A DNA stretch of 64,000 nt from an uncultured Candidatus Rokubacteria bacterium (GTDB taxonomy: Bacteria > Methylomirabilota > Methylomirabilia > Rokubacteriales > DASRDR01): assembly GCA_963805625.1 (NCBI GenBank), contig CAWDVE010000024.1:96001-160000 (forward strand). Reading direction: 5' to 3'. Numbering within the stretch: the stretch's first letter is position 1; the number at the start of each line of letters is the position of its first letter. Shown here in pieces: positions 1,171 through 55,727 of this stretch. Below the pieces are notes generated by a model that saw nothing but the letters and a program-made list of their open reading frames with translations, was not told the origin of the DNA and ran no database searches. A program made the translations under genes and the position numbers.

Positions 1171-1443
1171 GTGCCATCGTCCGACGAGCGCGTGGCGCGG
1201 ATGCATCACTCCCCGTGGAAGGTGGGGGAGCCCACGGACCTCGTACGCGCGCGGCAGCGGCTGATCGAGACCGGGGCGCTGGTGGGCTCGTCGAACCACG
1301 GGGTGAGCCTGTCGCTCTACGCGAAGGATCCCGACGGGCTCGAGTTCGAGGTCTTCTGGACGGTCCCGGATGGCAAGCCCGTCGGCACCAGACCGCTCCA
1401 TCTCGAGGCCGAGCTGGCCCGGCGCGGCATCACGGTGTCGTAG
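1171..1443 (+). pseudogene. VOC/glyoxalase-family C-terminal fragment
   Basis: GSSNHGVSLSLYAKDPDGLEFEVFW motif; the N-terminal half is replaced by the IS fragment. Confidence 0.6.
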
Positions 1444-1477
1444 GGCGCTCCGGGGCCGCGCCTCGTTAGGGGCCCTG

Positions 1478-2551
1478 ATGGATTCCGGCGAGACCGACGC
1501 AGATCGAGGGCGCCTCGGGGGTCTGCAGGATGCCTTCGACCAGGCGTGGCGCGCTGCCGAGGCACGTCGCGAGTCGCACTACGTCTTGCTCGGTCGGCCC
1601 GTGCGCATCCGCATCGCCGGCGGCGCCCTAGCGGCCCACATTCATGAGGCCTTCGCGCACCTGAGCGCGGGCGCAACCGTGGACGCGCCCCGCCTCACGG
1701 TCGACCTCTGGGACGTGCGGGAGACGGGCGTGCCCGTTCCCGACGACGGGGTGCGCTGCGTGGGCGAGCAGACCTGGGGGCCGGCCGAGGACCGCTTTGC
1801 CGCCACTCACGATCGGCGCGTCGTCGGCACCCACCTGCCCGGCAGCGGCGCGTGGCTCGACCGGCGCGCCGGGCACGCGATCGGCTGGTTCGCGGACGGC
1901 GATGGCCTCACGACGCACGAGCGGAGCAAGCCGCTCTACGCGCTGCTCGCTGTCTGGGCCAGCGATCGCGGCGTCCACGGCGTTCACGCCGCGCTGGTCG
2001 GCCGCGATGGGAGCGGGGTGCTGGTCCCGGGCGGTAGCGGTGCGGGGAAATCGACGGTCGCCCTCGCCTGCCTCTGCGCAGGGCAGACCTACTTCGGCGA
2101 CGACTGGATCGGACTCGCCCGCGTCGGCGACGTCTTCGAGGGCTACGGGTTCTATGGCGCCGCACTCCTGGAGGCACGCCACGCCACGCGTTTCCCGCTG
2201 CTCCAGCCCCACATTGTTCGCCCTCCGGGCCCAGGCGAGGGGAAGGCGCTCCTGCCGCTCGCGAGCGCGTTTCCCGAGCGGCTCGGACATTCGACGCGCG
2301 TGCGCGCGCTGGCCCTGCCACGCATCGTCGCGAGGTCGGGGACGCGGGTTGGCCCCGCCTCGCCGCGCGAGGCGCTGCTGACGCTCATGCCCAGCTCGGT
2401 CTTCATGATGCGGCCCCGCGGTGGACGCGCCGGAATCGAGCGCCTGGCCCAGCTCGCCCGCGAGCTCCCAGCGTACTGGCTCGAGATCGGCAGCGACCTG
2501 GACGACATCCCCCGAGGCGTCGACGAGATCCTGGTGCGCGCGACGACGTGA
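1478..2551 (+). CDS. HPr kinase-related P-loop kinase
   Basis: VHAALV, Walker A GGSGAGKST, and YFGDDW (DD motif of HprK-like kinases). Start chosen at ATG 1478. Confidence 0.8.
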   Translation: MDSGETDADRGRLGGLQDAFDQAWRAAEARRESHYVLLGRPVRIRIAGGALAAHIHEAFAHLSAGATVDAPRLTVDLWDVRETGVPVPDDGVRCVGEQTWGPAEDRFAATHDRRVVGTHLPGSGAWLDRRAGHAIGWFADGDGLTTHERSKPLYALLAVWASDRGVHGVHAALVGRDGSGVLVPGGSGAGKSTVALACLCAGQTYFGDDWIGLARVGDVFEGYGFYGAALLEARHATRFPLLQPHIVRPPGPGEGKALLPLASAFPERLGHSTRVRALALPRIVARSGTRVGPASPREALLTLMPSSVFMMRPRGGRAGIERLAQLARELPAYWLEIGSDLDDIPRGVDEILVRATT

Positions 2552-3708
2552 ACCGCCCTTGGCCCGACGGCCTGTGTCTCCTGCTACCGACCTCGGAGGA
2601 GACTGATCTCCTGCGCGCCTGCTTGTGGTCGGGGCCGGGGGGACGCGAGGCCTGGGAGCGGTGGCAAGGGCGTGTGGGCGGGGTGCGCCGGGGGCTCGGC
2701 GACGAAGCCGTGAAGCCGTTGCTCCCGCTGCTCTATCACGCCGTGCGCCGGAACGAGCTCGCGGTCGAGCCCCGCGTGCGCACCACCCTCGGCGCGGCGG
2801 TGCTCGCGGAGACGCTCCGGAGCGCGACCTACCAGCGGATCTGCGCGCGGGCCTGTGCGGCCGTCGAGGGGGCCTCCGTTCCGTTCCTCGTGCTCACGGG
2901 CGCGGCGCTGGGGGACACCGTCTATCCCGCAGGGGCGCTCCGGCACTCGCACGACGTCGACCTGCTCGTCGAGGCGCGCGACCTGGACCGCGCCACCGAG
3001 GCCCTGCGGCGTGGCGGCTTCACGCTGGTTCCCGGCCGGTGCGCGGACCCCGAGCAACGGGAGCTGCGCGACGAGTCCGGCCTCCCGATCCAGCTTCACT
3101 CCCGCCTGTTTCCCGTGCGCTACTACGCCATTGCCCTGGACGGCATCCGGGCCCGGGCCCAGGTCTCTGCGATCGCGGGCCGGCGCGTGCCCACGCTTTC
3201 CGCGGCCGACCACCTCGTGCACGTCTGCGGGCTGGCTGCCTGCGCGGGCCGCGGTCGGTCGCTGAAGTGGGTGTTCGACGCCTGGTACCTCATCGCCCGG
3301 CACCCTGAGCTGGACGGCCAAGCCCTTCTCCGGATGGCGTCCGATGCCCGCGTCGTGCTGCCGCTGACCGTGCTCCTGGGCTACCTGGCCGATCAGCTCG
3401 AGGCCCGCCTGCCGAGCCAGCTGCTCGCCGGGCTGGCGGCCGCCGCCGCGAGGACCGATCGGACCGCGCGCGAAGTCGCCCTGTTCGGGGTGCGTGCCGG
3501 CGGCCGGGGGACGCTTCGCAACCTCTGGCGGGCCACGCGCAGCTGGCGCGACGGAGCGGATCTGGTCCGCTGGATGCTCGTGCCGACGCCCGCCAGCTTG
3601 CGATTCGGCTGGCGGTTCCATGATTCTCGGCCCGTGGCCGCCGGCTATGTCCTGCGGCCCCTGTCCTACCTTCTGCGCCGCCTCGGATCGTGGCGGGGCG
3701 CCGCCTAG
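2548..3708 (+). CDS. Nucleotidyltransferase family protein (NTP_transf_5-like)
   Basis: FLVLTGAALGDTVYPAGALRHSHDVDLLV matches the LKG...YP...R...DxDLL signature, with K replaced by T. GTGA overlap with the kinase gene. Confidence 0.8.
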   Translation: MNRPWPDGLCLLLPTSEETDLLRACLWSGPGGREAWERWQGRVGGVRRGLGDEAVKPLLPLLYHAVRRNELAVEPRVRTTLGAAVLAETLRSATYQRICARACAAVEGASVPFLVLTGAALGDTVYPAGALRHSHDVDLLVEARDLDRATEALRRGGFTLVPGRCADPEQRELRDESGLPIQLHSRLFPVRYYAIALDGIRARAQVSAIAGRRVPTLSAADHLVHVCGLAACAGRGRSLKWVFDAWYLIARHPELDGQALLRMASDARVVLPLTVLLGYLADQLEARLPSQLLAGLAAAAARTDRTAREVALFGVRAGGRGTLRNLWRATRSWRDGADLVRWMLVPTPASLRFGWRFHDSRPVAAGYVLRPLSYLLRRLGSWRGAA

Positions 3709-3838
3709 GCGCGGGCCATGGTGGCCGTCGCCGGCGGCTGACGGCGGCCGGGGACCCCGCCTGCCGGTGCCGTCCAAGGTGAATGAGGGAGGCTACGAAT
3801 CGCAGTATCATGCAGGTCGACGTGCACAGGAGGTGGCG

Positions 3839-4291
3839 ATGCTGACGAACGACACTCGCCTGCGTCCGAACGACGCCGAGGTCGCGGCCGAGGTGATGGA
3901 TGGTGAGGCGATTCTGATCAACCTCGCCACCGGCGCGTACTACTCCATGGACAAGGCCGGCGGGCTGGTCTGGCAGTCGATCCAGCAGCACTGCTCGCTG
4001 GAGGAGATCGCCCAGCGGCTCACCGGCAGCTACGCCGTCTCGATCGAGCAGGCGCGCGCCGACGTGACCCGGCTCGGGTCCGAGCTGCTGGAAGCGCACC
4101 TCGTCACGGTCTCGACGGATGCCGCCCCCAGCGGTGATGCGTACGTCCCCCCGCCCGAGCGGCTGCTCTACGAGTCACCCACGGTGTCGGCTTACAGCGA
4201 CCTGCGCAACCTGCTCGCCCTCGATCCCCCGATGCCGTCCCTGGAGACCCTCCAGATCGAGGATCCGAGACGGGGGCCGTCCACCGCATGA
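3839..4291 (+). CDS. PqqD/RRE-family protein with C-terminal YxxP leader-like extension
   Basis: AGGAGG RBS; RRE fold DGEAILINLATGAYYSMDKAGGLVW...IAQRLTGSYAVSIEQARADVTRLGSELLEAHLV; tail YESPTVSAYSDLRNLLALDPPMP...PSTA. Confidence 0.85.
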   Translation: MLTNDTRLRPNDAEVAAEVMDGEAILINLATGAYYSMDKAGGLVWQSIQQHCSLEEIAQRLTGSYAVSIEQARADVTRLGSELLEAHLVTVSTDAAPSGDAYVPPPERLLYESPTVSAYSDLRNLLALDPPMPSLETLQIEDPRRGPSTA

Positions 4292-4298
4292 TTGGCAC

Positions 4299-5045
4299 GT
4301 GACCGGCGCCCTGGTGAGCTGCGTCGTCCCCGTGTTTAACGGGGAGCGCTACCTGCGGGAAGCGCTCGACAGCATCCTGGCCCAGACCTATCGGCCGCTG
4401 GAGGTCGTCGTGGCGGACGACGGCTCGACCGACAGCACGGTGGAGATCGTGGCTGGCTACGCCGACGCCGTGCGCTACGTCCGACAGGACAACGCCGGTG
4501 CCCCGGCGGCCCGCAACCTCGGTCTCGATAACGGGCGAGGTGACTTCATCGCCTTCCTCGACGCCGACGACGTCTGGCACCCGGAGAAGCTGGCCCGGCA
4601 GATGGCGCGCTTCGACGCGCGCCCCGACCTCGATCTCTGCGTCACCCACCTGCAGGCGTTCTGGATCGCCGAGCTGAAGGAGGAGGCGGCGAGATTCCGC
4701 GATCACCCACTGTCGGGGCCGCTGCCCGGGTATTCCACGGTGACCCTGTTGGCGCGACGCGCGCTGTTCGAACGGGTCGGCCGCTTCAACGTCGCGCTGA
4801 GCGTCGGCGATCCCATGGAGTGGTTCCTTCGTGCCGCCCACGAGGGCGCGGTGATGGAGCTGCTGCCGGAAACCCTTGTGTACCGGCGCATGCACCAGCG
4901 GAACCTGTCGTGGGATGTCGACGAAACCCGGCGCATGACGACGGCGATGCAGGCCTCGGTTCTACGGGTGGTGAAGGAGTCGCTCGATCGCCGGCGCCGC
5001 GAGGGATCGGCGGTGCGCGCCTACGACATCCCGGGGCCTCGATGA
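4299..5045 (+). CDS. Glycosyltransferase family 2
   Basis: VSCVVPVFNGERYL, DDGSTD, ARNLG, FLDADD motifs; GTG start. Confidence 0.9.
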   Translation: MTGALVSCVVPVFNGERYLREALDSILAQTYRPLEVVVADDGSTDSTVEIVAGYADAVRYVRQDNAGAPAARNLGLDNGRGDFIAFLDADDVWHPEKLARQMARFDARPDLDLCVTHLQAFWIAELKEEAARFRDHPLSGPLPGYSTVTLLARRALFERVGRFNVALSVGDPMEWFLRAAHEGAVMELLPETLVYRRMHQRNLSWDVDETRRMTTAMQASVLRVVKESLDRRRREGSAVRAYDIPGPR

Positions 5046-5176
5046 GCCGGGCCCTGGTGAGCTGCGTCGTCCCCGTGTTCAACGGGGAGCGCTACCTGCG
5101 GGAAGCGCTCGACAGCATCCTGGCCCAGACGTATCGGCCGCTGGAGGTCGTCGTGGCGGACGACGGCTCGACCGAC
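4308..5176 (+). repeat. Near-identical ~125 bp direct repeat at the 5' ends of the two GT2 genes (4308-4433 and 5051-5176)
   Basis: GCCCTGGTGAGCTGCGTCGTCCCCGTGTT...GACGACGGCTCGACCGAC occurs twice, with only two synonymous mismatches seen. Confidence 0.9.
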
Positions 5177-5764
5177 GGCTCGGCGGCGGCGGTGGCCGCC
5201 TACGGTGACCGGGCGCGCTGGCTGAGCCAGCCCACGGCGGGGCCGGCCGCGACGCGCAACCTCGGCCTGCGGGCCGCCCGCGGGGAGTTCGTCGCGTTCC
5301 TCGACGCCGACGATCTCTGGCATCCGGAGAAGCTGTCGCGCCAGGTCGCGCGCTTTGCGGCGCTGCCGGAGCTCGGCGTCTCGGTGACCCATATTCAGAA
5401 CTTCTGGATCGCCGACCTGGTGGAGGAGGCCGCGCGGCTTCGCGACGATCCGCGCGCAGGCCCGCTTCCCGGATACGTCACGATGACGATGATGGTGCGC
5501 CGGACGCTGTTCGACTCGGTCGGGCCGTTCGATGAATCCCTGTGGCACACGGACGCCGCCGACTGGTTCGTGCGCGTCGCCGCCCAGGGCGTCGTGATAG
5601 AGATGCTGCCCGATGTTCTCGCCCACCATCGCATGCACCGCACCAACCTCAGCCGCCGGATGGGGCCTGGCTCGCGCCGGGAGTTCGTGGGCATGGTGAA
5701 GCGGTCGCTCGACTGGCGACGGCGCTTCGGTGAGCCGGCGCCTCCGTTCCTGGCCTTCGACTAG
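5042..5764 (+). CDS. Glycosyltransferase family 2 (paralogue of the preceding gene)
   Basis: Same GT2 motifs; ATGA overlap with the upstream stop. Confidence 0.9.
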   Translation: MSRALVSCVVPVFNGERYLREALDSILAQTYRPLEVVVADDGSTDGSAAAVAAYGDRARWLSQPTAGPAATRNLGLRAARGEFVAFLDADDLWHPEKLSRQVARFAALPELGVSVTHIQNFWIADLVEEAARLRDDPRAGPLPGYVTMTMMVRRTLFDSVGPFDESLWHTDAADWFVRVAAQGVVIEMLPDVLAHHRMHRTNLSRRMGPGSRREFVGMVKRSLDWRRRFGEPAPPFLAFD

Positions 5765-5787
5765 GGTGGCGCCGGGCGGGGGTCGAG

Positions 5788-6903
5788 GTGCGGGTCCTCG
5801 TGTGGCAGGAGCCCTTCGGCCCTGGGCGCGGCGGCGTGCACACGATGGCGGAAGCGCTGCTCCCGGCCCTGCGGGGACGCGGTCACGACCTCGCCGTCGT
5901 CTCCCGACAGGACGCGACCGACGGCCCGCAGCGGGGGATGTGGAAAGGGATTCCCGTCTACCGATTCCCGCTCTGGCAAGCCCTCGAGAGCGCTGATCCC
6001 GCAGCGATCATGCGATGGCGACGCGAGATCGAGCGGCTCGAGCGCGACTTCGCGCCGGAGCTGGTTCATCTCAACTCCTTTGGTCCGACGGCCCTCTATC
6101 ACCTGGAGGCGAGGCGGGCCGCCCCCCCGCCGCTCCTCGTCACCCTCCACTCGTCGAACGTCTTGGTCCCCGGCTCCGCGACCGTGCTGCGACGGACCCT
6201 GCGGGCCGCCAGCTGGACGACCGCATGCTCGCATGCGCTACTCGCGCAGGCCCGACGGGTGGCCCCGGAGATCGAGGCGCGGTCGTCCGTCATCCACAAC
6301 GGCGTCGATCCTCCGGTCGGCGCGCCCTCGCCGCTTCCGTTCGACGAGCCCCGGGTGCTCTGCCTGGGTCAGCTCGCCCCCCACAAGGGGTTCGACCTGG
6401 CCATCCGAGCCTGCGCGGTGGTCCGCGCCCGATTTCCACGGTTGCGGCTGATCGTCGCCGGGGAAGGTCCGGCGAGGCGCGACCTGGAGGCGCTGGTCGA
6501 GCGGGAAGGCCTCGGCGCCGCGGTCGACTTCGTCGGCCGCGTAGCGCACGCCGATGTGCCAGAGCTCCTCGACACCGTCACGCTGGTCGCGCTGCCGTCG
6601 CGGCGCGAGGCGTTCCCACTCGTCGCGCTCGAGGCCGCGGTAATGGGCCGCCCAGTCGTGGCCGCTCGCGTCGATGGGCTGCCCGAGGCCGTGGCCGACC
6701 GGGAGACTGGCCTGCTGGTGGACCCGGAGAGCCCGGTGGCGCTCGCCGCGGCGATCACGTTCCTCCTGACCCACCCCGACGCGGCCGTGGCCATGGGCGC
6801 GGCCGGGAGGCGCCGCGCCGCGCGGGAATTCGGGCTGGCGCGGCACGTGGACGCCTACGATAGGCTGTACCGGACGCTGCGGGAAGGGCCGGTGCCGGGA
6901 TGA
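5788..6903 (+). CDS. Glycosyltransferase family 4 (GT-B)
   Basis: GQLAPHKG and PSRREAFPLVALEAAVMGRPVVA (EX7E) motifs. Confidence 0.9.
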   Translation: MRVLVWQEPFGPGRGGVHTMAEALLPALRGRGHDLAVVSRQDATDGPQRGMWKGIPVYRFPLWQALESADPAAIMRWRREIERLERDFAPELVHLNSFGPTALYHLEARRAAPPPLLVTLHSSNVLVPGSATVLRRTLRAASWTTACSHALLAQARRVAPEIEARSSVIHNGVDPPVGAPSPLPFDEPRVLCLGQLAPHKGFDLAIRACAVVRARFPRLRLIVAGEGPARRDLEALVEREGLGAAVDFVGRVAHADVPELLDTVTLVALPSRREAFPLVALEAAVMGRPVVAARVDGLPEAVADRETGLLVDPESPVALAAAITFLLTHPDAAVAMGAAGRRRAAREFGLARHVDAYDRLYRTLREGPVPG

Positions 6904-7712
6904 AGACCATCGACAACCTCGAGATCCACCTCGTTCACAGTTGTAATCTGGCTTGCGAGGGCTGCTCGCACTATTCCAACCAGGGACACCGGGGGATGAT
7001 CTCGCTCGAGGAAGCGGACGCCTGGATGCGTCAGTGGAACCGGCGGGTGAGCCCGCGCACCTTTTCGCTGCTGGGGGGCGAGCCCACGATTCATCCGAAG
7101 CTCGTCGACTTCGTGTCCCTGAGCCGCCGGAACTGGCCCGAGGCGCGGCTCCAGCTGGTGACCAACGGCTTCCTGCTAGACCGGCATCCGGACCTGCCGG
7201 TCGTCCTCGGCAACGACCCGAATGCCTGCATCTCGCTCTCGATCCATCACGCCTCACCGCAGTATCGCGACCGGCTCCTGCCCGTCGTCCGGCTCCTCGT
7301 CGAGTGGACCCGCCGCCACGGTGTGCAGATCGACTTCCGGCCATCCCACGGAAGCTGGACTCGCCGGTACAAGGGGTTCGGGGCCTCGATGGAGCCCTTC
7401 GACGACGGCCGGCCGCGGGAGAGCTGGGAGCGCTGCCCGGCGAAGTACTGCAAGCAGCTGTTCCGGGGCGAGTTGTGGAAGTGCGCCCCGATCGCCTATC
7501 TGCCGATGCAGCACGCGAAGTACGGGCTCTCCGCAGCGTGGAAGCCCTATCTCAAGTACAAGTCGCTGGCGCCCGGCTGCACGGACGAGGAGCTCTCGGC
7601 GTTTCTTGCCCTAGAGGACGAGTCCTGCTGCCGGATGTGTCCGGCCGAGCCGGAGCGCTTCGAGATGCCGCTGCCCTTCCCGTCTCGCGCTTTCGTCCGC
7701 ACGCCCCGATAG
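6900..7712 (+). CDS. Radical SAM protein with Cys-rich C-terminus
   Basis: CNLACEGC (CxxxCxxC), GGEPT, TNG; C-terminal C..C..KC..CCRMC; ATGA overlap. Confidence 0.9.
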   Translation: MKTIDNLEIHLVHSCNLACEGCSHYSNQGHRGMISLEEADAWMRQWNRRVSPRTFSLLGGEPTIHPKLVDFVSLSRRNWPEARLQLVTNGFLLDRHPDLPVVLGNDPNACISLSIHHASPQYRDRLLPVVRLLVEWTRRHGVQIDFRPSHGSWTRRYKGFGASMEPFDDGRPRESWERCPAKYCKQLFRGELWKCAPIAYLPMQHAKYGLSAAWKPYLKYKSLAPGCTDEELSAFLALEDESCCRMCPAEPERFEMPLPFPSRAFVRTPR

Positions 7713-9663: not shown

Positions 9664-12600
9664 CTAGCGCCGGTGGACGAGCGACACCGCCGCCACCGAC
9701 CCCTCTCCGTGGCACACTTCACAGGTCTCGATGTTCCCCAACGTGTTGATCGCCGCGTGCGTCGCCGCGATCACCGAGTCGTGGCACGTGAGGCACGCAT
9801 CCGTAATCGGCAGGATGCTGCCCGTCACCGTCTCGGTCGACGGCGGTGTCACCTGGCTCAGCCGAGTCGGTAGGAGGTTCGACGGGAGCGGCAGCAGCTG
9901 GCTGCCATTCACGTGGCACGTCGCGCAGTCCCTTCGGTCCCCCGGGAAGCGGATCTCGCTGAAGTCGTGCGCCGTGTAGTTCTGCGGGGCCGATCCGAAG
10001 CCGTACACGATGTACGGCTTGTTCTCGAGTTCCTCTCCGGTGTGAACCTTGTGGAGCAGGTGCTTCAGGTTGATGGGCTCATTCGCGAGGTCTGGGCTCG
10101 GGGTCCCGGCCTGAGTCTGGCCATAGGTGTAGGCATTCACGCGGCGCGTGAAGTCGCTCACGTTCGGGTTGTGGCAAATGACGCAGTGGTTCGTCTGGTT
10201 GCGTGAGCCTCCGTGCACGGCGAAGCCCTGCGAGAAGACCCCGTGGCACTGCTGGCAGTTGCCGATCGCCACCACCGTGCGCCGAGGCACCACGGGCGAG
10301 CCGTCCACGCTGAAGTCCCGCACCGGGTTCTGAGCGAACTCGGTGACGGTGGTGGGGCCGCCGACCAGGTTGACGTTGGCGACCGCGCGGCGGGCTTCAA
10401 GCCCGACGCGCCAGGTTCCGGTGGCATCTGCCGGCAGCTTGTTCGCGCCCGTCGTCGTGAACGTGAAGGCGTCGACGCCGTCGAACACGGCACCCGTCAC
10501 GTTCTGACTGAGCATGGGCGCGGAACTACCGCCGAAGTCGGTTGTGGGCCCGCTGGCCCTGAGGCTGATCGTGCCGATCGGAGCGGAAAGGCTGGTGATC
10601 GGGCTGTTATCATCGCCGTTCTTGAGACGGAATTTGACCGTGATGCCGTTCCCGGGGGTCCCCGACGCGTCCAGCAGCTCGGCGACGAGCCCCCGCAGCT
10701 GCAGCGACTGCTGGGGAATGGTATGGGCCCCGGTCACCGAGACGGTCGCCTCGTTGGCCACCGTCCCGTCTCCGGGCGTGTGGCAGCCGGCGCAGGCCGC
10801 CTCGGGCGCGGCGCCGCCGCCGTGGGGCTTGCCGTTGCTCTTGAACCCGGCCGGAATTGTCCCGAGGTTCGACTGGGGCGGTGTCACGATGTCCGCCGTG
10901 CTCGGGTTCACGTCGTCGTGGCATCCGGTGCAGGCGGGTGTCGACGGCAGGGTTCGGAACGTGTGCGCGGTGGCCCCGCCGGTGTGGCACTTGGTGCAGT
11001 TCCGGACGTCCTGCGGGAAGCCCACCCCCGTCACCGCCGTCCCGGTGCAGGTGCCGGTCCCGCAGTCGGGGTCACCGGTGCAGGGCGCGCCCTCCTTCGG
11101 GCCCAAGACGCAGACGTTGATCTTCTCGGAGAACACCGTGTTCCCGACGGCGAACTTGGTGCCCACCGGGCCGGCCACGACCGACGGAAGCTCCTTGCCG
11201 CGGTGGATCTTATGGATCATCACCCTGAAGTTGAGGCTGCCCGCGTCGGGATCGACGAGCTGTTCCGTATGGCAGAGCATGCAGAGGCGCACTTCGCGCC
11301 GGCCGCCCCCGTGGACCGCCAGAGGGTTGTGGCACTCGTTGCACGCCGCCGTGGACACCGGCTCGCGCTGAAGGGTCAGCGCGCTCCTCCCCGGATTGCA
11401 GGCCACCCAGACCCCGCCGGTGAAGGCGGGGTTATAGGCGAAGAAGGAGCCGATGGGTCCGGGGACCTCAAGGCCCGTCGCGCCGTCGAAGGCGCGGACG
11501 TGGGGGCCGCCGCCGGGCCCGGCGCCCGTCACCACGTCCAGGATTCCGTCGCCGGTTAAGTCGCACGCCGCGACCTGTACGCCCCCGGTAAACGTCGGGT
11601 CGTAGGCCCACAGTTCGAGACCGGCCGCCGTCCCGAGGCCGGTGAAGCCCCGGACGTGAGGGCCGCCGCCGGGCCCGGCGCCGGTGATGATCCGGGCCTC
11701 CGTCGAGCCCCGGAGGCTCCCGCATGCGACGAACACCCCGCCGGCGAATGCGGGGGCGTAGGCCAGGAAGGTCGACAGCTGCTGCGCCGGATTCTGTCCG
11801 TTGAACACCGTGACGCGCGGCTCTCCGCCGGGCCCGGCGGCCGTCACGATGTCGGCCCGCCCGTCGTTGTTCACGTCGCACGCCGCGACCCGCACGCCGC
11901 CGGTGAAGGCGGCGTCGAAGGCGAAGAACGACGCGACTTCGGCGCCGGTCTTGCCGTCGAACGCGCGGACATGGGGGCCGCCGCCCGCGTCGGCGGCGGC
12001 GATCACGTCCGGCGTGCCGTCCCCGGTGACATCGCCGCACGCCACGAATACGCCCCCGGTAAAGGCCACATCGAAGGCCATGAACGACCCGATCGGCCCG
12101 GGCAGCACCGCCCCGGTCACTCCGTCAAAGGCCCTGACGTGGGGCCCCCCGCCCGGGCCGGCGCCGGAAACTACATCGACGACGCCGTCACCGGTCAGGT
12201 CGCACACGGCCACGCGCGCGCCGCCGAGGAAGGCAGGGCTATAGGCGAAGAAGTCGCCCGGCGTCCCGGGGAGCGGCAGACCGAGGACGCTGTTGAAGCC
12301 GCGGATGTGAGGCCCGCCCCACGACCCGGCACCGGTCGTCGGGCGCCCGTCGGGCACGAAATCGAAGATCGGGTTTGCAGCGAGGCGCCCCCCGTCAAAG
12401 AACCGGTCGACCTGCCCTCCGATCGTGTGAACCAGGGCCGCGGACCCGGGAAAGGGCGCCGGCAGCGTCCTGCCGAAGGTGTATCGGTAGGTGCCCGTGC
12501 CCTGATCCTCGAGCAGGAAGCTCCCGCCCGTATCGAAGGTCGGCTCTCCGGACGCGTTGAGGAGGTAGTTCATGTAGCGCGTGAACTGGACGGTGCTGGC

Positions 12601-12900
12601 GCCGTCCGTCTGCTCGTTGACCTCCAGCCGCGCGATGGCGAAGCGGACCCGGGCCAGGACGGGGTCAGAGGCGGACGAGACCGCACTTGCGGTGGGCGTG
12701 AGGGGGACGCCGGCCGTGTCGGTGAGGGTGAACCTCACGCTCGCGATCCCGGTGTCGCTCACCGAGGCGGCCAGGATGGCCACCTCGAGGCCGGGTCCGG
12801 GGAGCGGCACCGGCGGCGCGCTCGCGCTCTGGAGAAAGCCGAGGATCAGGACCAGAAGAACGGAGGGAGTGACCGTCTGAACGCCCTTCGGACGCCGCAT
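9664..12900 (-). CDS. OmcA/MtrC-family decaheme c-type cytochrome with an inserted six-repeat FG-GAP-like domain
   Basis: Ten CxxCH motifs in two groups of five (CNECH, CMLCH, CTKCH, CTGCH, CAGCH / CQQCH, CVICH, CATCH, CLTCH, CEVCH); HGGxR and MIHKIH/LLHKVH motifs typical of MtrC; signal peptide ending ASA. Confidence 0.92.
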   Translation of the reverse strand: MRRPKGVQTVTPSVLLVLILGFLQSASAPPVPLPGPGLEVAILAASVSDTGIASVRFTLTDTAGVPLTPTASAVSSASDPVLARVRFAIARLEVNEQTDGASTVQFTRYMNYLLNASGEPTFDTGGSFLLEDQGTGTYRYTFGRTLPAPFPGSAALVHTIGGQVDRFFDGGRLAANPIFDFVPDGRPTTGAGSWGGPHIRGFNSVLGLPLPGTPGDFFAYSPAFLGGARVAVCDLTGDGVVDVVSGAGPGGGPHVRAFDGVTGAVLPGPIGSFMAFDVAFTGGVFVACGDVTGDGTPDVIAAADAGGGPHVRAFDGKTGAEVASFFAFDAAFTGGVRVAACDVNNDGRADIVTAAGPGGEPRVTVFNGQNPAQQLSTFLAYAPAFAGGVFVACGSLRGSTEARIITGAGPGGGPHVRGFTGLGTAAGLELWAYDPTFTGGVQVAACDLTGDGILDVVTGAGPGGGPHVRAFDGATGLEVPGPIGSFFAYNPAFTGGVWVACNPGRSALTLQREPVSTAACNECHNPLAVHGGGRREVRLCMLCHTEQLVDPDAGSLNFRVMIHKIHRGKELPSVVAGPVGTKFAVGNTVFSEKINVCVLGPKEGAPCTGDPDCGTGTCTGTAVTGVGFPQDVRNCTKCHTGGATAHTFRTLPSTPACTGCHDDVNPSTADIVTPPQSNLGTIPAGFKSNGKPHGGGAAPEAACAGCHTPGDGTVANEATVSVTGAHTIPQQSLQLRGLVAELLDASGTPGNGITVKFRLKNGDDNSPITSLSAPIGTISLRASGPTTDFGGSSAPMLSQNVTGAVFDGVDAFTFTTTGANKLPADATGTWRVGLEARRAVANVNLVGGPTTVTEFAQNPVRDFSVDGSPVVPRRTVVAIGNCQQCHGVFSQGFAVHGGSRNQTNHCVICHNPNVSDFTRRVNAYTYGQTQAGTPSPDLANEPINLKHLLHKVHTGEELENKPYIVYGFGSAPQNYTAHDFSEIRFPGDRRDCATCHVNGSQLLPLPSNLLPTRLSQVTPPSTETVTGSILPITDACLTCHDSVIAATHAAINTLGNIETCEVCHGEGSVAAVSLVHRR
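11390..12335 (-). repeat. Six intragenic FG-GAP/beta-propeller-like repeats
   Basis: Repeated GxGGGPHVRxF...F(F)A(Y/F)xxxFxGG(V)xVAxC(D)xxxDG units. Confidence 0.85.
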
Positions 12901-13008
12901 ATGCACCTCCACGCGACCGGCGAAGAAGTCAGCCCCAGCGTTCCCGGCGAGCCATGCGAGCGGACCTCCCTGCCGGATGCATCGCGATCCCGCGGCGCAG
13001 GCCAGGTT

Positions 13009-13065
13009 AGTGTCTTCCAGACTCTCGTACTCTGTCAATGGTGCGAACTAATGATGCGAACTAAT
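13009..13065 (-). promoter_or_regulatory. Candidate sigma70 promoter with an adjacent 11-bp direct repeat, upstream of the cytochrome gene
   Basis: Minus-strand TTGACA (13038-13033), 18 nt spacer, GACACT; TGCGAACTAAT repeated at 13042-13052 and 13055-13065. Confidence 0.5.
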
Positions 13066-13566
13066 CAGACGACCCCGAGTTCGAGCGTGCAACGGGGTCA
13101 CAAGCTCATGATCGGTCGTGGAACGGGGTGTGTCAGCGGTCCACGTCGAGGCGTACCTCAGTCAGCCTGCGCACCGTAGATAGGCAGCTCGTCCAGGAAG
13201 AGCACCCCCCAGGTGGGCCAGGCTGACCTCGCCGGGATGCGGCGGCCGGCCTCCCACCCACGAGTCCCGCGGCCGAGACCGTGTGGTGCGGGGTCCGGAA
13301 CGGTCGCCGCGTTCCGAGGCCTTTCGGGCACCGGCGTCTGCGGCTACTCGAACAGGCCGGCCTGCTCGGGTTGTCAGGGGTGGGGCGCTTCAACCTGGAG
13401 CTCCTGGGTCAACCTGGCGAGGCCTCGGGCGGTCAAGGTCGTGGGGCCCGGGCGCCGTGGGCTGTGAGAGGCGTGGCCGCCGAACTGAGAAAGCCCACGT
13501 TTCGAGATCGAACCAGGTGGTATTGGCCGGGTTTCGCCACGATGATCTCGGGGATTCGCTTGGAAT

Positions 13567-27646: not shown

Positions 27647-28252
27647 CTAGACGAGCCAGCGTAGCCACCCCGCGCGCCGGTTGCCCCGTGCCGCCGCGCG
27701 ATCGAGCGGGGGCGCCAGGAACCCGTCGACGCCGAAGCTCCGCCCGGCGTCGGTCAGGAGGAAGAGCGCGGGGAACATGAGGAGCATCGTGTAGGTCCAG
27801 CCCCACTCGTTCGGGACATTCAGGATGCTGACCGTGATGTTGGCGGCCATGCCGATCGCCACGAGGGACCCCAGCCGGGCGCCGAGCCCGAGGATCAGCG
27901 TCACGGCGATGAAGGTTTCGGTGCAGAGCGTCATCCAGCCGAAGAAGGTCCAGTGGGGGATCACGACGTTGAGCTGGAAGTCCTTGTAGGCGTTCAGCGT
28001 CGGGTGCTGGATGCCCTGCTGGAACCAGTACCAGAGGCCGCCGCCGGACTTCCGGCCGAAGTCGTCGGAGGGTACCTTCCAGGCGGACTGTTGCCACCAG
28101 AGGTACCCGTAGAGGATTCGGGCTAGCCCGAGCGGCCACAGGGGGGCCGTGGCCCGGAGCCAGCCCGTGCGCGGACGATCCTCCGCCGGCGCCGCGTGGC
28201 CATTTCGTGCGGATCCCATCGTGACCGGCTCGGTCTGCAGTGTGGTTGGCAA
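27647..28252 (-). CDS. DoxD/TQO small subunit-like membrane protein (copy 1)
   Basis: LARILYGYLWWQQSAWKVP, E...LILGLGARLG, EWGWTY, AGRSFGVD. Confidence 0.8.
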   Translation of the reverse strand: MPTTLQTEPVTMGSARNGHAAPAEDRPRTGWLRATAPLWPLGLARILYGYLWWQQSAWKVPSDDFGRKSGGGLWYWFQQGIQHPTLNAYKDFQLNVVIPHWTFFGWMTLCTETFIAVTLILGLGARLGSLVAIGMAANITVSILNVPNEWGWTYTMLLMFPALFLLTDAGRSFGVDGFLAPPLDRAAARGNRRAGWLRWLV

Positions 28253-54259: not shown

Positions 54260-54862
54260 TCAGACGAGCCAGCGGACGATCCGGGCGAGTGGATGGCCCT
54301 GGGCTGCCGCACGGTCGAGCGGGGGCGCCAGGAACGCGTCGACGCCGAAGCTCCGCCCGGCGTCGGTCAGGAGGAAGAGCACGGGGAACATGATGAGCAT
54401 CGTGTAGGTCCAGCCCCACTCGTTCGGGACGTTCAAGATGCTGACCGTGATGTTGGTCGCCATGCCGATCGCCACGAGGGACCCCAGCCGGGTGCCGAGC
54501 CCGAGAATCAGCGTGACGGCGATGAAGGTCTCGGTGATCAGCGTCATCCAGCCGAAGAAGGTCCAGTGGGGGATCACGACGTGGAGCTGGAAGTCCTTGT
54601 AGGCGGTGAGGGTGGGGTGCTGGATCCCCTGCTGGAACCAGTACCAGAGGCCGCCGCCGGACTTCCGGCCGAAGTCGTCGGAGGGCACCTTCCAGGCGGA
54701 CTGCTGCCACCAGAGGTAGCCGTAGAGGATCCGCGCCAGCCCGAGCGGCCAGAGCGGGGCTGTCGCCCGGAGCCAGCCCACTCGGGCCAAGCTCTCGGCT
54801 CTGACCCCTGCATCACGATCGGTCATCGCGGCAACCTCGCGCACCACCCCTTCCACAGCCAT
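54260..54862 (-). CDS. DoxD/TQO small subunit-like membrane protein (copy 2)
   Basis: GGAGGAG RBS; core nearly identical to 27647-28252. Confidence 0.8.
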   Translation of the reverse strand: MAVEGVVREVAAMTDRDAGVRAESLARVGWLRATAPLWPLGLARILYGYLWWQQSAWKVPSDDFGRKSGGGLWYWFQQGIQHPTLTAYKDFQLHVVIPHWTFFGWMTLITETFIAVTLILGLGTRLGSLVAIGMATNITVSILNVPNEWGWTYTMLIMFPVLFLLTDAGRSFGVDAFLAPPLDRAAAQGHPLARIVRWLV

Positions 54863-55220
54863 CGCTACTCCTCCCCTCGCCACGCCGGGACCGCTCGTTG
54901 GACCCGCGTCCCCCAGTTTGACACGAGCCGGCCGCCGAGCGGTTCGCTTGGCGAACAGGGGCCGCCGGCGTTGCCGCCGGGGGCTCAGGCGTACTTGGCC
55001 GGCGCGAAGCGATCTGCGGTGATCAGCGCGTTCGCGAGCGTCTCCGGCATCGAGCCCCGTGGGGTCCGCGCGAGACTCTATCCGTGACGGTCCCCGATGG
55101 CGATCCGCCGGAGCGGCCGGCCGACTCGATGGGCCGCCCGGCGGGCGAGACCGGACACCGGGCATGCCCGGTCCTGTGGCACGCCCTGACCGATTGTTGC
55201 GCGCTCGGCGTGGATCGGGC

Positions 55221-55727
55221 CTACTCGGGACCGGGATCTCCCCCGGCCAGATGGACCGTCTCGTCGCCAACCCGCACCACCGCATCCCATGTGACCTCGA
55301 TGGCCCCCTTGACGCTCTGGTGCGCGGGGCACCCCTGGGGATGGAGCGTCAGGGCGCGCTCCGTCGCCTCGCGCGTCCCGAGCGGTACGGCGACGTCGTA
55401 GTGGACGTGGATGGATCGAATCCGAATGGTCTTGCCGATGCCGGCGATGCGACCTTTCACGGTGGCCCTGAACGACTCCCGATCGAAGGCAACCTGGCGC
55501 CCTGCCAGGGCGCCACGCAGGGTGCCGTACATTCAGCCGGCCACGGCGGCCACGATGTGGTCCAGCGTCGACGCGATGGGCGGTCCCTCGCTGACCCCAT
55601 AGTATTGGCGGAGCTTTCCCTGCACGCCGTAGACGATCGGTTCCGGGACGTCGCCGAGCCATGCGTGGCGGTAGCCATTGCGGTATTCGATCCGAGCCGA
55701 GGAGATGTACTCGAAGTCGTCGCTCAT
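55221..55727 (-). CDS. OsmC/Ohr-like protein with in-frame UGA (probable selenocysteine)
   Basis: ORFs 55533-55817 and 55221-55532 are in frame: ...DHIVAAVAG-TGA-MYGTL...GCPAHQSV. The UGA sits at the first OsmC catalytic Cys. AAAGGAG RBS before MSDDF. Confidence 0.85.
55495..55515 (-). promoter_or_regulatory. Candidate bacterial SECIS hairpin (OsmC-like gene)
   Basis: mRNA UGGCGCCCU-GGC-AGGGCGCCA, a perfect 9-bp stem starting 18 nt after the UGA, with a G-first loop. Confidence 0.6.

Follow-up and report, generated by a model that had tools for sequence, protein, structure and literature searches.

In a 64,000-nucleotide window of contig CAWDVE010000024.1 from an uncultured Candidatus Rokubacteria bacterium (assembly GCA_963805625.1, positions 96,001 to 160,000), the minus-strand gene at 9664..12900 encodes a 1078-residue protein, P0001, which is a decaheme cytochrome of the OmcA/MtrC family with an intact core. 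Between the first two of its four domains lies a six-repeat FG-GAP module that is predicted to fold as a closed propeller, an architecture that is genuine, rare and apparently undescribed.

Heme core and inserted module

An earlier reading made from the sequence alone had called the protein MtrC/OmcA-like, and this assignment was borne out by a profile search, in which P0001 scored 366.1 bits against TIGR03507 (curated cut-off 209.3), by its ten CXXCH motifs and by its predicted fold. The profile aligns in two pieces, model positions 3-151 and 146-672, that flank the insert. The CXXCH motifs lie in two pentaheme domains accompanied by ten distal histidines, and with these ten further His conserved along with the motifs, in 85-89 of the 89 family rows aligned, heme ligation appears unimpaired. 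The full-length structure model has a predicted local distance difference test score (pLDDT) of 87.3, with low confidence confined to the signal peptide and linkers, and Foldseek returns OmcA, UndA, MtrC and MtrF at ranks 1-15, in keeping with a predicted barrel-heme-barrel-heme fold. The alignment of the model to OmcA and MtrC spans the insert, with TM-scores by target of 0.61-0.65 for 4lmh. The gene has the following parts:

9664..12900, minus strand: OmcA/MtrC-family decaheme cytochrome gene with propeller insert (P0001, 1078 aa); from TIGR03507, structure model and fold search
12906..12910, minus strand: GGAGG, Shine-Dalgarno-like, 5 nt ahead of the ATG at 12900; from sequence
12817..12900, minus strand: predicted Sec signal peptide, residues 1-28, ending S-A-S-A, no lipobox Cys; from sequence and hydropathy
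12352..12792, minus strand: domain I beta-barrel, residues 37-183; from TIGR03507 positions 3-151 and model strands
11386..12348, minus strand: inserted six-repeat FG-GAP module, residues 185-505; from comparison with P0003, Pfam and structure model
10711..11385, minus strand: domain II, hemes 1-5, CXXCH at 520, 540, 635, 657 and 703
11047..11112, minus strand: four-Cys mini-insert of domain II (C597, C607, C613, C618), common to the Binatia-type clade
10291..10710, minus strand: domain III beta-barrel, residues 731-870, Cys-free; from the Cys list
9667..10290, minus strand: domain IV, hemes 6-10, CXXCH at 882, 906, 992, 1036 and 1060

The start codon is supported by P0003, a relative ~80% identical to the insert-bearing gene, whose start Met is the same; the cleavage site of the signal peptide is a presumed one. 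The insert had originally been placed between domain I and the first heme at about 315 residues, and while that site holds, the size is 320 net residues in the domain I/II linker. At the insertion site the sequence of P0003 is FVPD-A-SALT. In 67 of the 69 family proteins of our set whose domain I end could be recognised, 15-16 residues separate that end from the first heme, and the only long linkers are those of P0001 (336 residues) and P0002 (331 residues), the latter an independent full-length fusion from another collection that is 79% identical to P0001. As the sequence had suggested, the insert comprises six repeats of 52-56 aa with one cysteine each (C233, C288, C341, C393, C446 and C501), and both FG-GAP and FG-GAP_3 exceed the Pfam cut-off within it. 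The claim of calcium-binding-like loops in several repeats stands for the relaxed pattern and shrinks for the strict one: four loops read DxxxDGxxD, three of them with Thr at position 3, two blades lack such a loop, and the calcium-blade motif Dx[DN]xDG, followed two positions on by an acidic residue and described in the accessible text of PMC3123361, occurs at D342 only. Stabilisation of the propeller loops by calcium is predicted.

Modelled in isolation from a five-row alignment, the insert (pLDDT 88.6; predicted template modelling score 0.90) shows six repeats with 24 main strand positions and is predicted to close into a six-bladed FG-GAP propeller, the closure that the sequence-only reading had left to structure prediction. 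Its nearest Foldseek matches are UmbA4, integrin heads and the Psathyrella lectins PAL and PVL. Like the FG-GAP calcium-blade propellers (integrin alpha, Psathyrella lectins, UmbA4, rhamnogalacturonan lyase), it has FG-GAP repeats and DxxxDGxxD loops, but it has six repeats rather than seven or eight, as well as paired inter-blade cysteines, whereas the propellers of integrin alpha and the PVL-type lectins are seven-bladed. Its best global geometry is instead that of nidogen, Kelch and NHL propellers, which a whole-fold aligner ranks first (Z 21-23) and which we take to be six-bladed. The insert opens at the second strand of one blade and supplies that blade's first strand at its other end; the cytochrome chain would enter and leave the propeller where that blade's calcium loop would be, and the graft may be tolerated for this reason. 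Because the ring is predicted to close with its two ends side by side, the four-domain core could rejoin.

The six cysteines of the insert alternate between two positions. In other carriers of the module, an xCD blade is followed by a CG blade in 24 of 24 cases, as against 1 of 473 other pairs, and the same pairing was found in 8 of 8 cases versus 3 of 468 in a second set, the carriers not being independent of one another. This covariation supports inter-blade disulfides 233-288, 341-393 and 446-501. Between P0001 and P0002, identity in the insert (256/316, 81%) matches that of the core segments (120/147, 176/221, 109/138 and 163/202; 79-82%), and all six insert cysteines are retained, as is a degenerate fourth blade.

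Authenticity of the gene

Both junctions, at which the sequence-only reading had proposed to look for misassembly, are bridged by contigs from further studies. The N-side junction (near 12348) is spanned in runs X1, X2, X3 and X18 and the C-side junction (near 11386) in runs X1, X2, X18 and X8; X1 may be the source sample, and the others come from four further studies. Among the joints listed in eight runs, none skips the whole insert, a weak form of absence. The RNA libraries X16-X19 yielded contigs matching the gene at 94-99%, with X18 bridging both junctions; these runs were selected by means of this gene and DNA may be among their content, and we make no claim of transcription. The contig belongs to the host genus: its GroEL is 98% identical to that of a same-genus genome, a neighbouring sulfatase gene is ~90% identical at the DNA level, and the tetranucleotide correlation is 0.996. 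The host genome is 99.91% complete with 6.26% contamination, and this contamination and the repetitive insert are what could speak for a chimeric assembly or a contaminant contig, an explanation that we consider to have practically no chance of being right and that is ruled out by the bridging contigs from other studies and by P0002, with the contig's match to its host genus counting further against it.

Origin of the cytochrome

The host's RpoB and EF-Tu fall into 90% clusters alongside proteins labelled Methylomirabilota and Candidatus Rokuibacteriota. A TIGR03507-family protein exceeds the cut-off in one of 183 genomes of the order, and a P0003 query matched one of 251 Methylomirabilota genomes (at most four candidates scored per genome). 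In a midpoint-rooted core tree (LG+G4, insert left out), built from 89 of the 92 rows of our alignment with three propeller-only rows omitted, P0001, P0002 and P0003 form a clade, which itself lies within a group of 50 rows of non-lipoprotein MtrCs, among them a protein named as Binatia. The four-Cys mini-insert of domain II is present in 50 of the 89 rows, namely all 50 of this group, and 45 rows, all among those 50, carry a Cys-rich N-terminal domain. Since the first cysteine of P0001 is residue 233, the protein has no lipobox, as had been noted; as a distinguishing trait this did not survive, given that a lipobox is found in 24 of 89 family rows (by a pattern of our own that missed at least two) and that 45 rows have the Cys-rich domain instead. 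Absence of a lipobox is ordinary in the clade of P0001.

Compared with Shewanella MtrC, OmcA, MtrF and UndA (TIGR03507; 4lmh, 6qyc, 3pmq, 3ucp), P0001 shares four domains, a 5+5 arrangement of CXXCH motifs and ten distal His, and differs in its 320-aa propeller in the domain I/II linker, its domain II mini-insert and its lack of a lipobox, of the domain III CX8-15C motif and of MtrAB in the genome. Residues 707-881 hold no cysteine, and a Cys-free domain III leaves no room for the CX8-15C flavin-control disulfide, a motif described in the available portion of PMC4486940. Judged by the missing lipobox and CX8-15C motif, P0001 lies outside the Shewanella lipoprotein clades (MtrC, MtrF, OmcA, UndA). 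Its closer kin are Binatia-type non-lipoprotein MtrCs (for example P0012, named Candidatus Binatia, and loci L039-L051), which are ~50-55% identical, fall in the same clade (Shimodaira-Hasegawa-like approximate likelihood ratio test 100) and share the mini-insert and the lack of a lipobox; unlike P0001, they have an eight-Cys N-terminal domain and no propeller. At loci with the Cys-rich domain, a porin-like gene is found in 8/9 and a DmsE/MtrA-like gene in 7/9 within the fetched flank, and in the ninth such genome contig C14 carries a porin at 116-118 kb, which seems to be only slightly outside the flank. Taken with the midpoint-rooted tree, these relationships suggest that the gene was gained horizontally from a Binatia-type donor without its mtrA and porin partners.

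In the tree P0003 pairs with P0002, leaving P0001 outside (support 98/95), and an approximately unbiased test on 20 rows gave p 0.024 against P0001 and P0002 as a clade; this test can over-reject under LG+G4, and the tested group was named after the tree was seen. The simplest reading of the propeller's history is one gain followed by a clean loss, with recombination a possible alternative. The cytochrome gene is solitary, flanked by an SGNH gene and a 2-oxoglutarate-Fe(II) oxygenase gene. A broken remnant of a comM-like gene, comM being used as an integration site, lies 280 bp upstream and is possibly an integration scar:

13183..13327, minus strand: frameshifted 145-bp comM/yifB-like remnant, 80% identical to an intact copy on contig C17

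Searches for further fusions like P0001 brought up none besides P0002 among the matches listed. A query with residues 60-260 against short proteins listed 120 matches, all FG-GAP modules and none with domain I; a P0003 query against long proteins gave one weak match, a 1392-aa decaheme without FG-GAP motifs, which is weak evidence; and among the best 150 of 14009 matches in an exhaustive phmmer search, both parts occurred only in P0002, apart from the two-CXXCH protein P0492. A metagenome scan for relatives found only 31 distant loci, and none of 109 loci held another propeller-decaheme fusion.

Two sets of relatives' loci have features of their own. At L039, L040, L043, L044, L047, L048 and L051, a non-lipoprotein MtrC with the eight-Cys N-terminal domain is encoded together with an 11-12-heme cytochrome, DmsE/MtrA and a porin-like protein of 650-690 aa that falls below the MtrB_PioB cut-off, and such Binatia-type operons have likely been missed by Mtr surveys. 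In a sister clade (L041, L042, most of L050-L069, L072, L074 and L075), the genes downstream of a lipoprotein MtrC encode a conserved 440-aa protein that no Pfam or NCBIfam model matches and, in place of MtrAB, cytochromes with 7, 4 and 6 hemes.

Partners in the host genome

That no mtrA or mtrB lies near the gene had been seen in the window, and this extends to the whole genome: there are no MtrB_PioB (PF11854) matches in the 99.91%-complete assembly, no TIGR03508 DmsE/MtrA match over the cut-off and no match at E<=0.01 to seven tblastn queries with relatives' porins. The cytochrome gene is thus an orphan, outside any MtrCAB system. The genome does encode Omp85 proteins, a type II secretin (GspD) over the cut-off and, below the cut-off, a CcmF/NrfE-like protein.

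On contig C13 (317549-337110; L147 and L148), two multiheme clusters face each other, one with multiheme cytochromes, a cytochrome b and an EB_dh-type heme protein, the other with 4-, 6- and 11-heme cytochromes, a pair of NHL proteins and a putative beta-barrel of 714 aa, which ends in Phe and was read as a barrel from its sequence. Together they are a candidate non-Mtr porin-cytochrome conduit, resembling the D. ferrophilus clusters in the accessible part of PMC5815863, and a link to P0001 is our conjecture. Because the host has this second multiheme, NHL and putative barrel cluster along with a type II secretion system, P0001 need not work alone.

Distribution of the FG-GAP module

The six-repeat module recurs in the host genome, with eight matches, at the C-terminus of four other secreted-type proteins (a GDSL esterase, an S8 peptidase, a pectinesterase-like protein and an InlB-repeat protein) and in three partial copies besides. 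Module copies lie at C12:29926-33186, C12:49479-51161, C21:322213-335559 and C17:294412-296502, those on C17 being split between frames. Within the host's family the module has become multi-copy, with up to 15 matches in one genome (G177); with at most 12 candidates scored per genome, it is found in 7 of 183 genomes of the order, all of that family (6 of 20 other family genomes and 0 of the remaining 162). Of 154 carriers, 52 have it at the C-terminus, 38 at the N-terminus and 18 internally, and in 46 it makes up the whole piece; among 120 short homologues listed, it is joined to an M23, YkuD, amidase or polysaccharide deacetylase domain in 22. In two further carriers, a Cys-paired module ends a two-CXXCH CCP/MauG-like protein (P0492), and an N-terminal six-blade module has a fully alternating six-Cys pattern like that of the insert (P0112).

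Role of the propeller

The explanation that we tentatively put forward, at close to an even chance of being correct, is that P0001 is exported as an OmcA-like accessory reductase whose predicted propeller holds the protein on the envelope or matrix. A portable FG-GAP module would have been inserted into the domain I/II linker of a Binatia-type-derived decaheme; the product would then be exported by Sec, receive its hemes through a Ccm system and leave the cell by type II secretion. The two weakest steps are that electrons would be supplied by the host's non-Mtr multiheme, NHL and putative beta-barrel cluster on C13, and that the propeller would bind an envelope glycan or protein, replacing the lipid anchor. 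Tethered in this way, P0001 would pass electrons to outside acceptors. It would thereby be an outer-surface protein that reduces external acceptors, and of the equipment for this the genome shows the export machinery. A tether is likely because the usual lipid anchor and MtrAB partners are absent; in Shewanella, as the accessible text of PMC8415449 has it, the lipid of MtrC has no structural role and may only hold secreted MtrC at the surface. A more specific version, in which a non-covalent tether held by calcium and disulfides frees an MtrC-type wire from lipid and MtrAB and plugs an acquired cytochrome into a foreign porin-cytochrome conduit, is doubtful; if true, Rokubacteria would gain a route of extracellular electron transfer.

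Several observations weigh against a tethered reductase. The module has no known ligand, and the folds closest to the insert share <22% identity with it. Its carriers are partly monoderm and partly diderm bacteria, and one shared envelope ligand is therefore not obvious. The insert is at best 54% identical to host modules, against 61% and 59% for others, and with no clear affinity to the host's own copies a host origin of the module is not shown. P0003, with neither propeller, lipobox nor Cys-rich domain, is nested inside the insert-bearing pair, and the propeller is therefore dispensable in at least one lineage. Finally, the 714-aa putative barrel has no Pfam or NCBIfam match, occurs in 1/20 family relatives and lies on a different contig from the cytochrome.

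The sequence-only reading had favoured adhesion or mineral/ligand binding, and the propeller may indeed be a module for binding acceptors, by which the secreted cytochrome would adhere to Fe/Mn oxides, humic particles or partner cells. The acidic DxxxDG loops, the nearest Foldseek matches to integrin heads and glycan-binding propellers (UmbA4, PAL/PVL) and the statement in the available part of PMC8805035 that OmcA is thought to help adherence to solids are consistent with this. The same module, however, sits on esterases, peptidases and cell-wall enzymes that have no mineral substrate, and calcium-blade propellers have no broad common molecular function (PMC3123361, same text), such that we regard this explanation as unlikely. 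Because the module rides on secreted and peptidoglycan-acting enzymes, we prefer envelope tethering to mineral binding, for which none of our results speaks, and a portable envelope-binding or docking unit appears to fit better than a mineral-specific one.

Were the propeller only a tolerated passenger, a mobile module in a permissive linker with no cytochrome-specific role, one would understand why the fusion is so rare (2/69 proteins, 0/109 loci), why it is lost or absent in the sister P0003 and why the module has multiplied in the host's family. Yet the insert has diverged no faster than the heme core over ~20% divergence, its six cysteines and degenerate fourth blade are all kept, and near-identical fused forms recur in several studies, all of which makes this account quite improbable. 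We attach equally little probability to P0001 remaining periplasmic as an electron carrier or store whose propeller docks to periplasmic partners or peptidoglycan. The missing lipobox and MtrAB and the module's frequent place alongside peptidoglycan enzymes are in line with it; on the other side, those Shewanella members that have been characterised reach the cell surface through type II secretion (PMC8415449, in the text cited above), the host has a type II secretion system, and the nearest kin without a lipobox adjoin MtrA and a porin.

Relation to published work

The sequence-only reading did not recognise the architecture among characterised MtrC proteins, and it proves unusual, with the long linker in 2/69 family proteins, a single carrier among 251 genomes of the phylum and no published description found. 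In the literature covered, which excluded supplements and most subscription journals, we found no description of an MtrC and FG-GAP fusion. The nearest to a decaheme and beta-propeller fusion were separate NHL proteins in the accessible part of PMC5815863; no report of MtrC in Rokubacteria or Methylomirabilota was found, the consulted part of FeGenie holds no such protein, and a preprint on the modular evolution of multiheme cytochromes contains neither 'propeller' nor 'VCBS'. According to the available portions of PMC8805035 and PMC12133095, two Mtr surveys filtered out proteins bearing additional domains as well as genomes lacking a full mtrCAB, and it is partly because of this that MtrC-family architecture has been treated as fixed.

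The fusion indicates that the domain I/II linker tolerates a 320-residue domain, predicted to be folded, in nature, and this linker would offer an existing position at which binding modules could be displayed on an electron wire. The insert-less P0003 offers a natural control. The reach of the finding is bounded by the rarity of the fusion and by P0003 managing without the insert; P0001 is at the same time the only family member found among the 251 genomes of Methylomirabilota, a phylum of soil and sediment.

Other features of the window

A promoter scan of the cytochrome gene gave one weak site and no downstream terminator. Upstream, at 13040-13070 on the minus strand and just before a TTGACA hexamer, the short direct repeat TTAGTTCGCA occurs twice and is a possible regulator site; one X3 contig lacks 13 bases there. 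At 1370-7712, genes for HPr-kinase-like, NTP_transf_5 nucleotidyltransferase, PqqD-like, glycosyltransferase-like and radical SAM proteins form a cluster that presumably resembles neighbourhoods associated with ribosomally synthesized and post-translationally modified peptides, and an IS256-like transposase fragment (weak NCBIfam match) lies at 789-1100. Two nearly identical copies of a membrane-protein gene, which we take to be related to the thiosulfate:quinone oxidoreductase small subunit/DoxD, are found at 27647-28252 and ~54700-55285. Elsewhere in the genome, GroEL has six full-length matches, five of them 91-100% identical to the copy on the contig studied here (C24).

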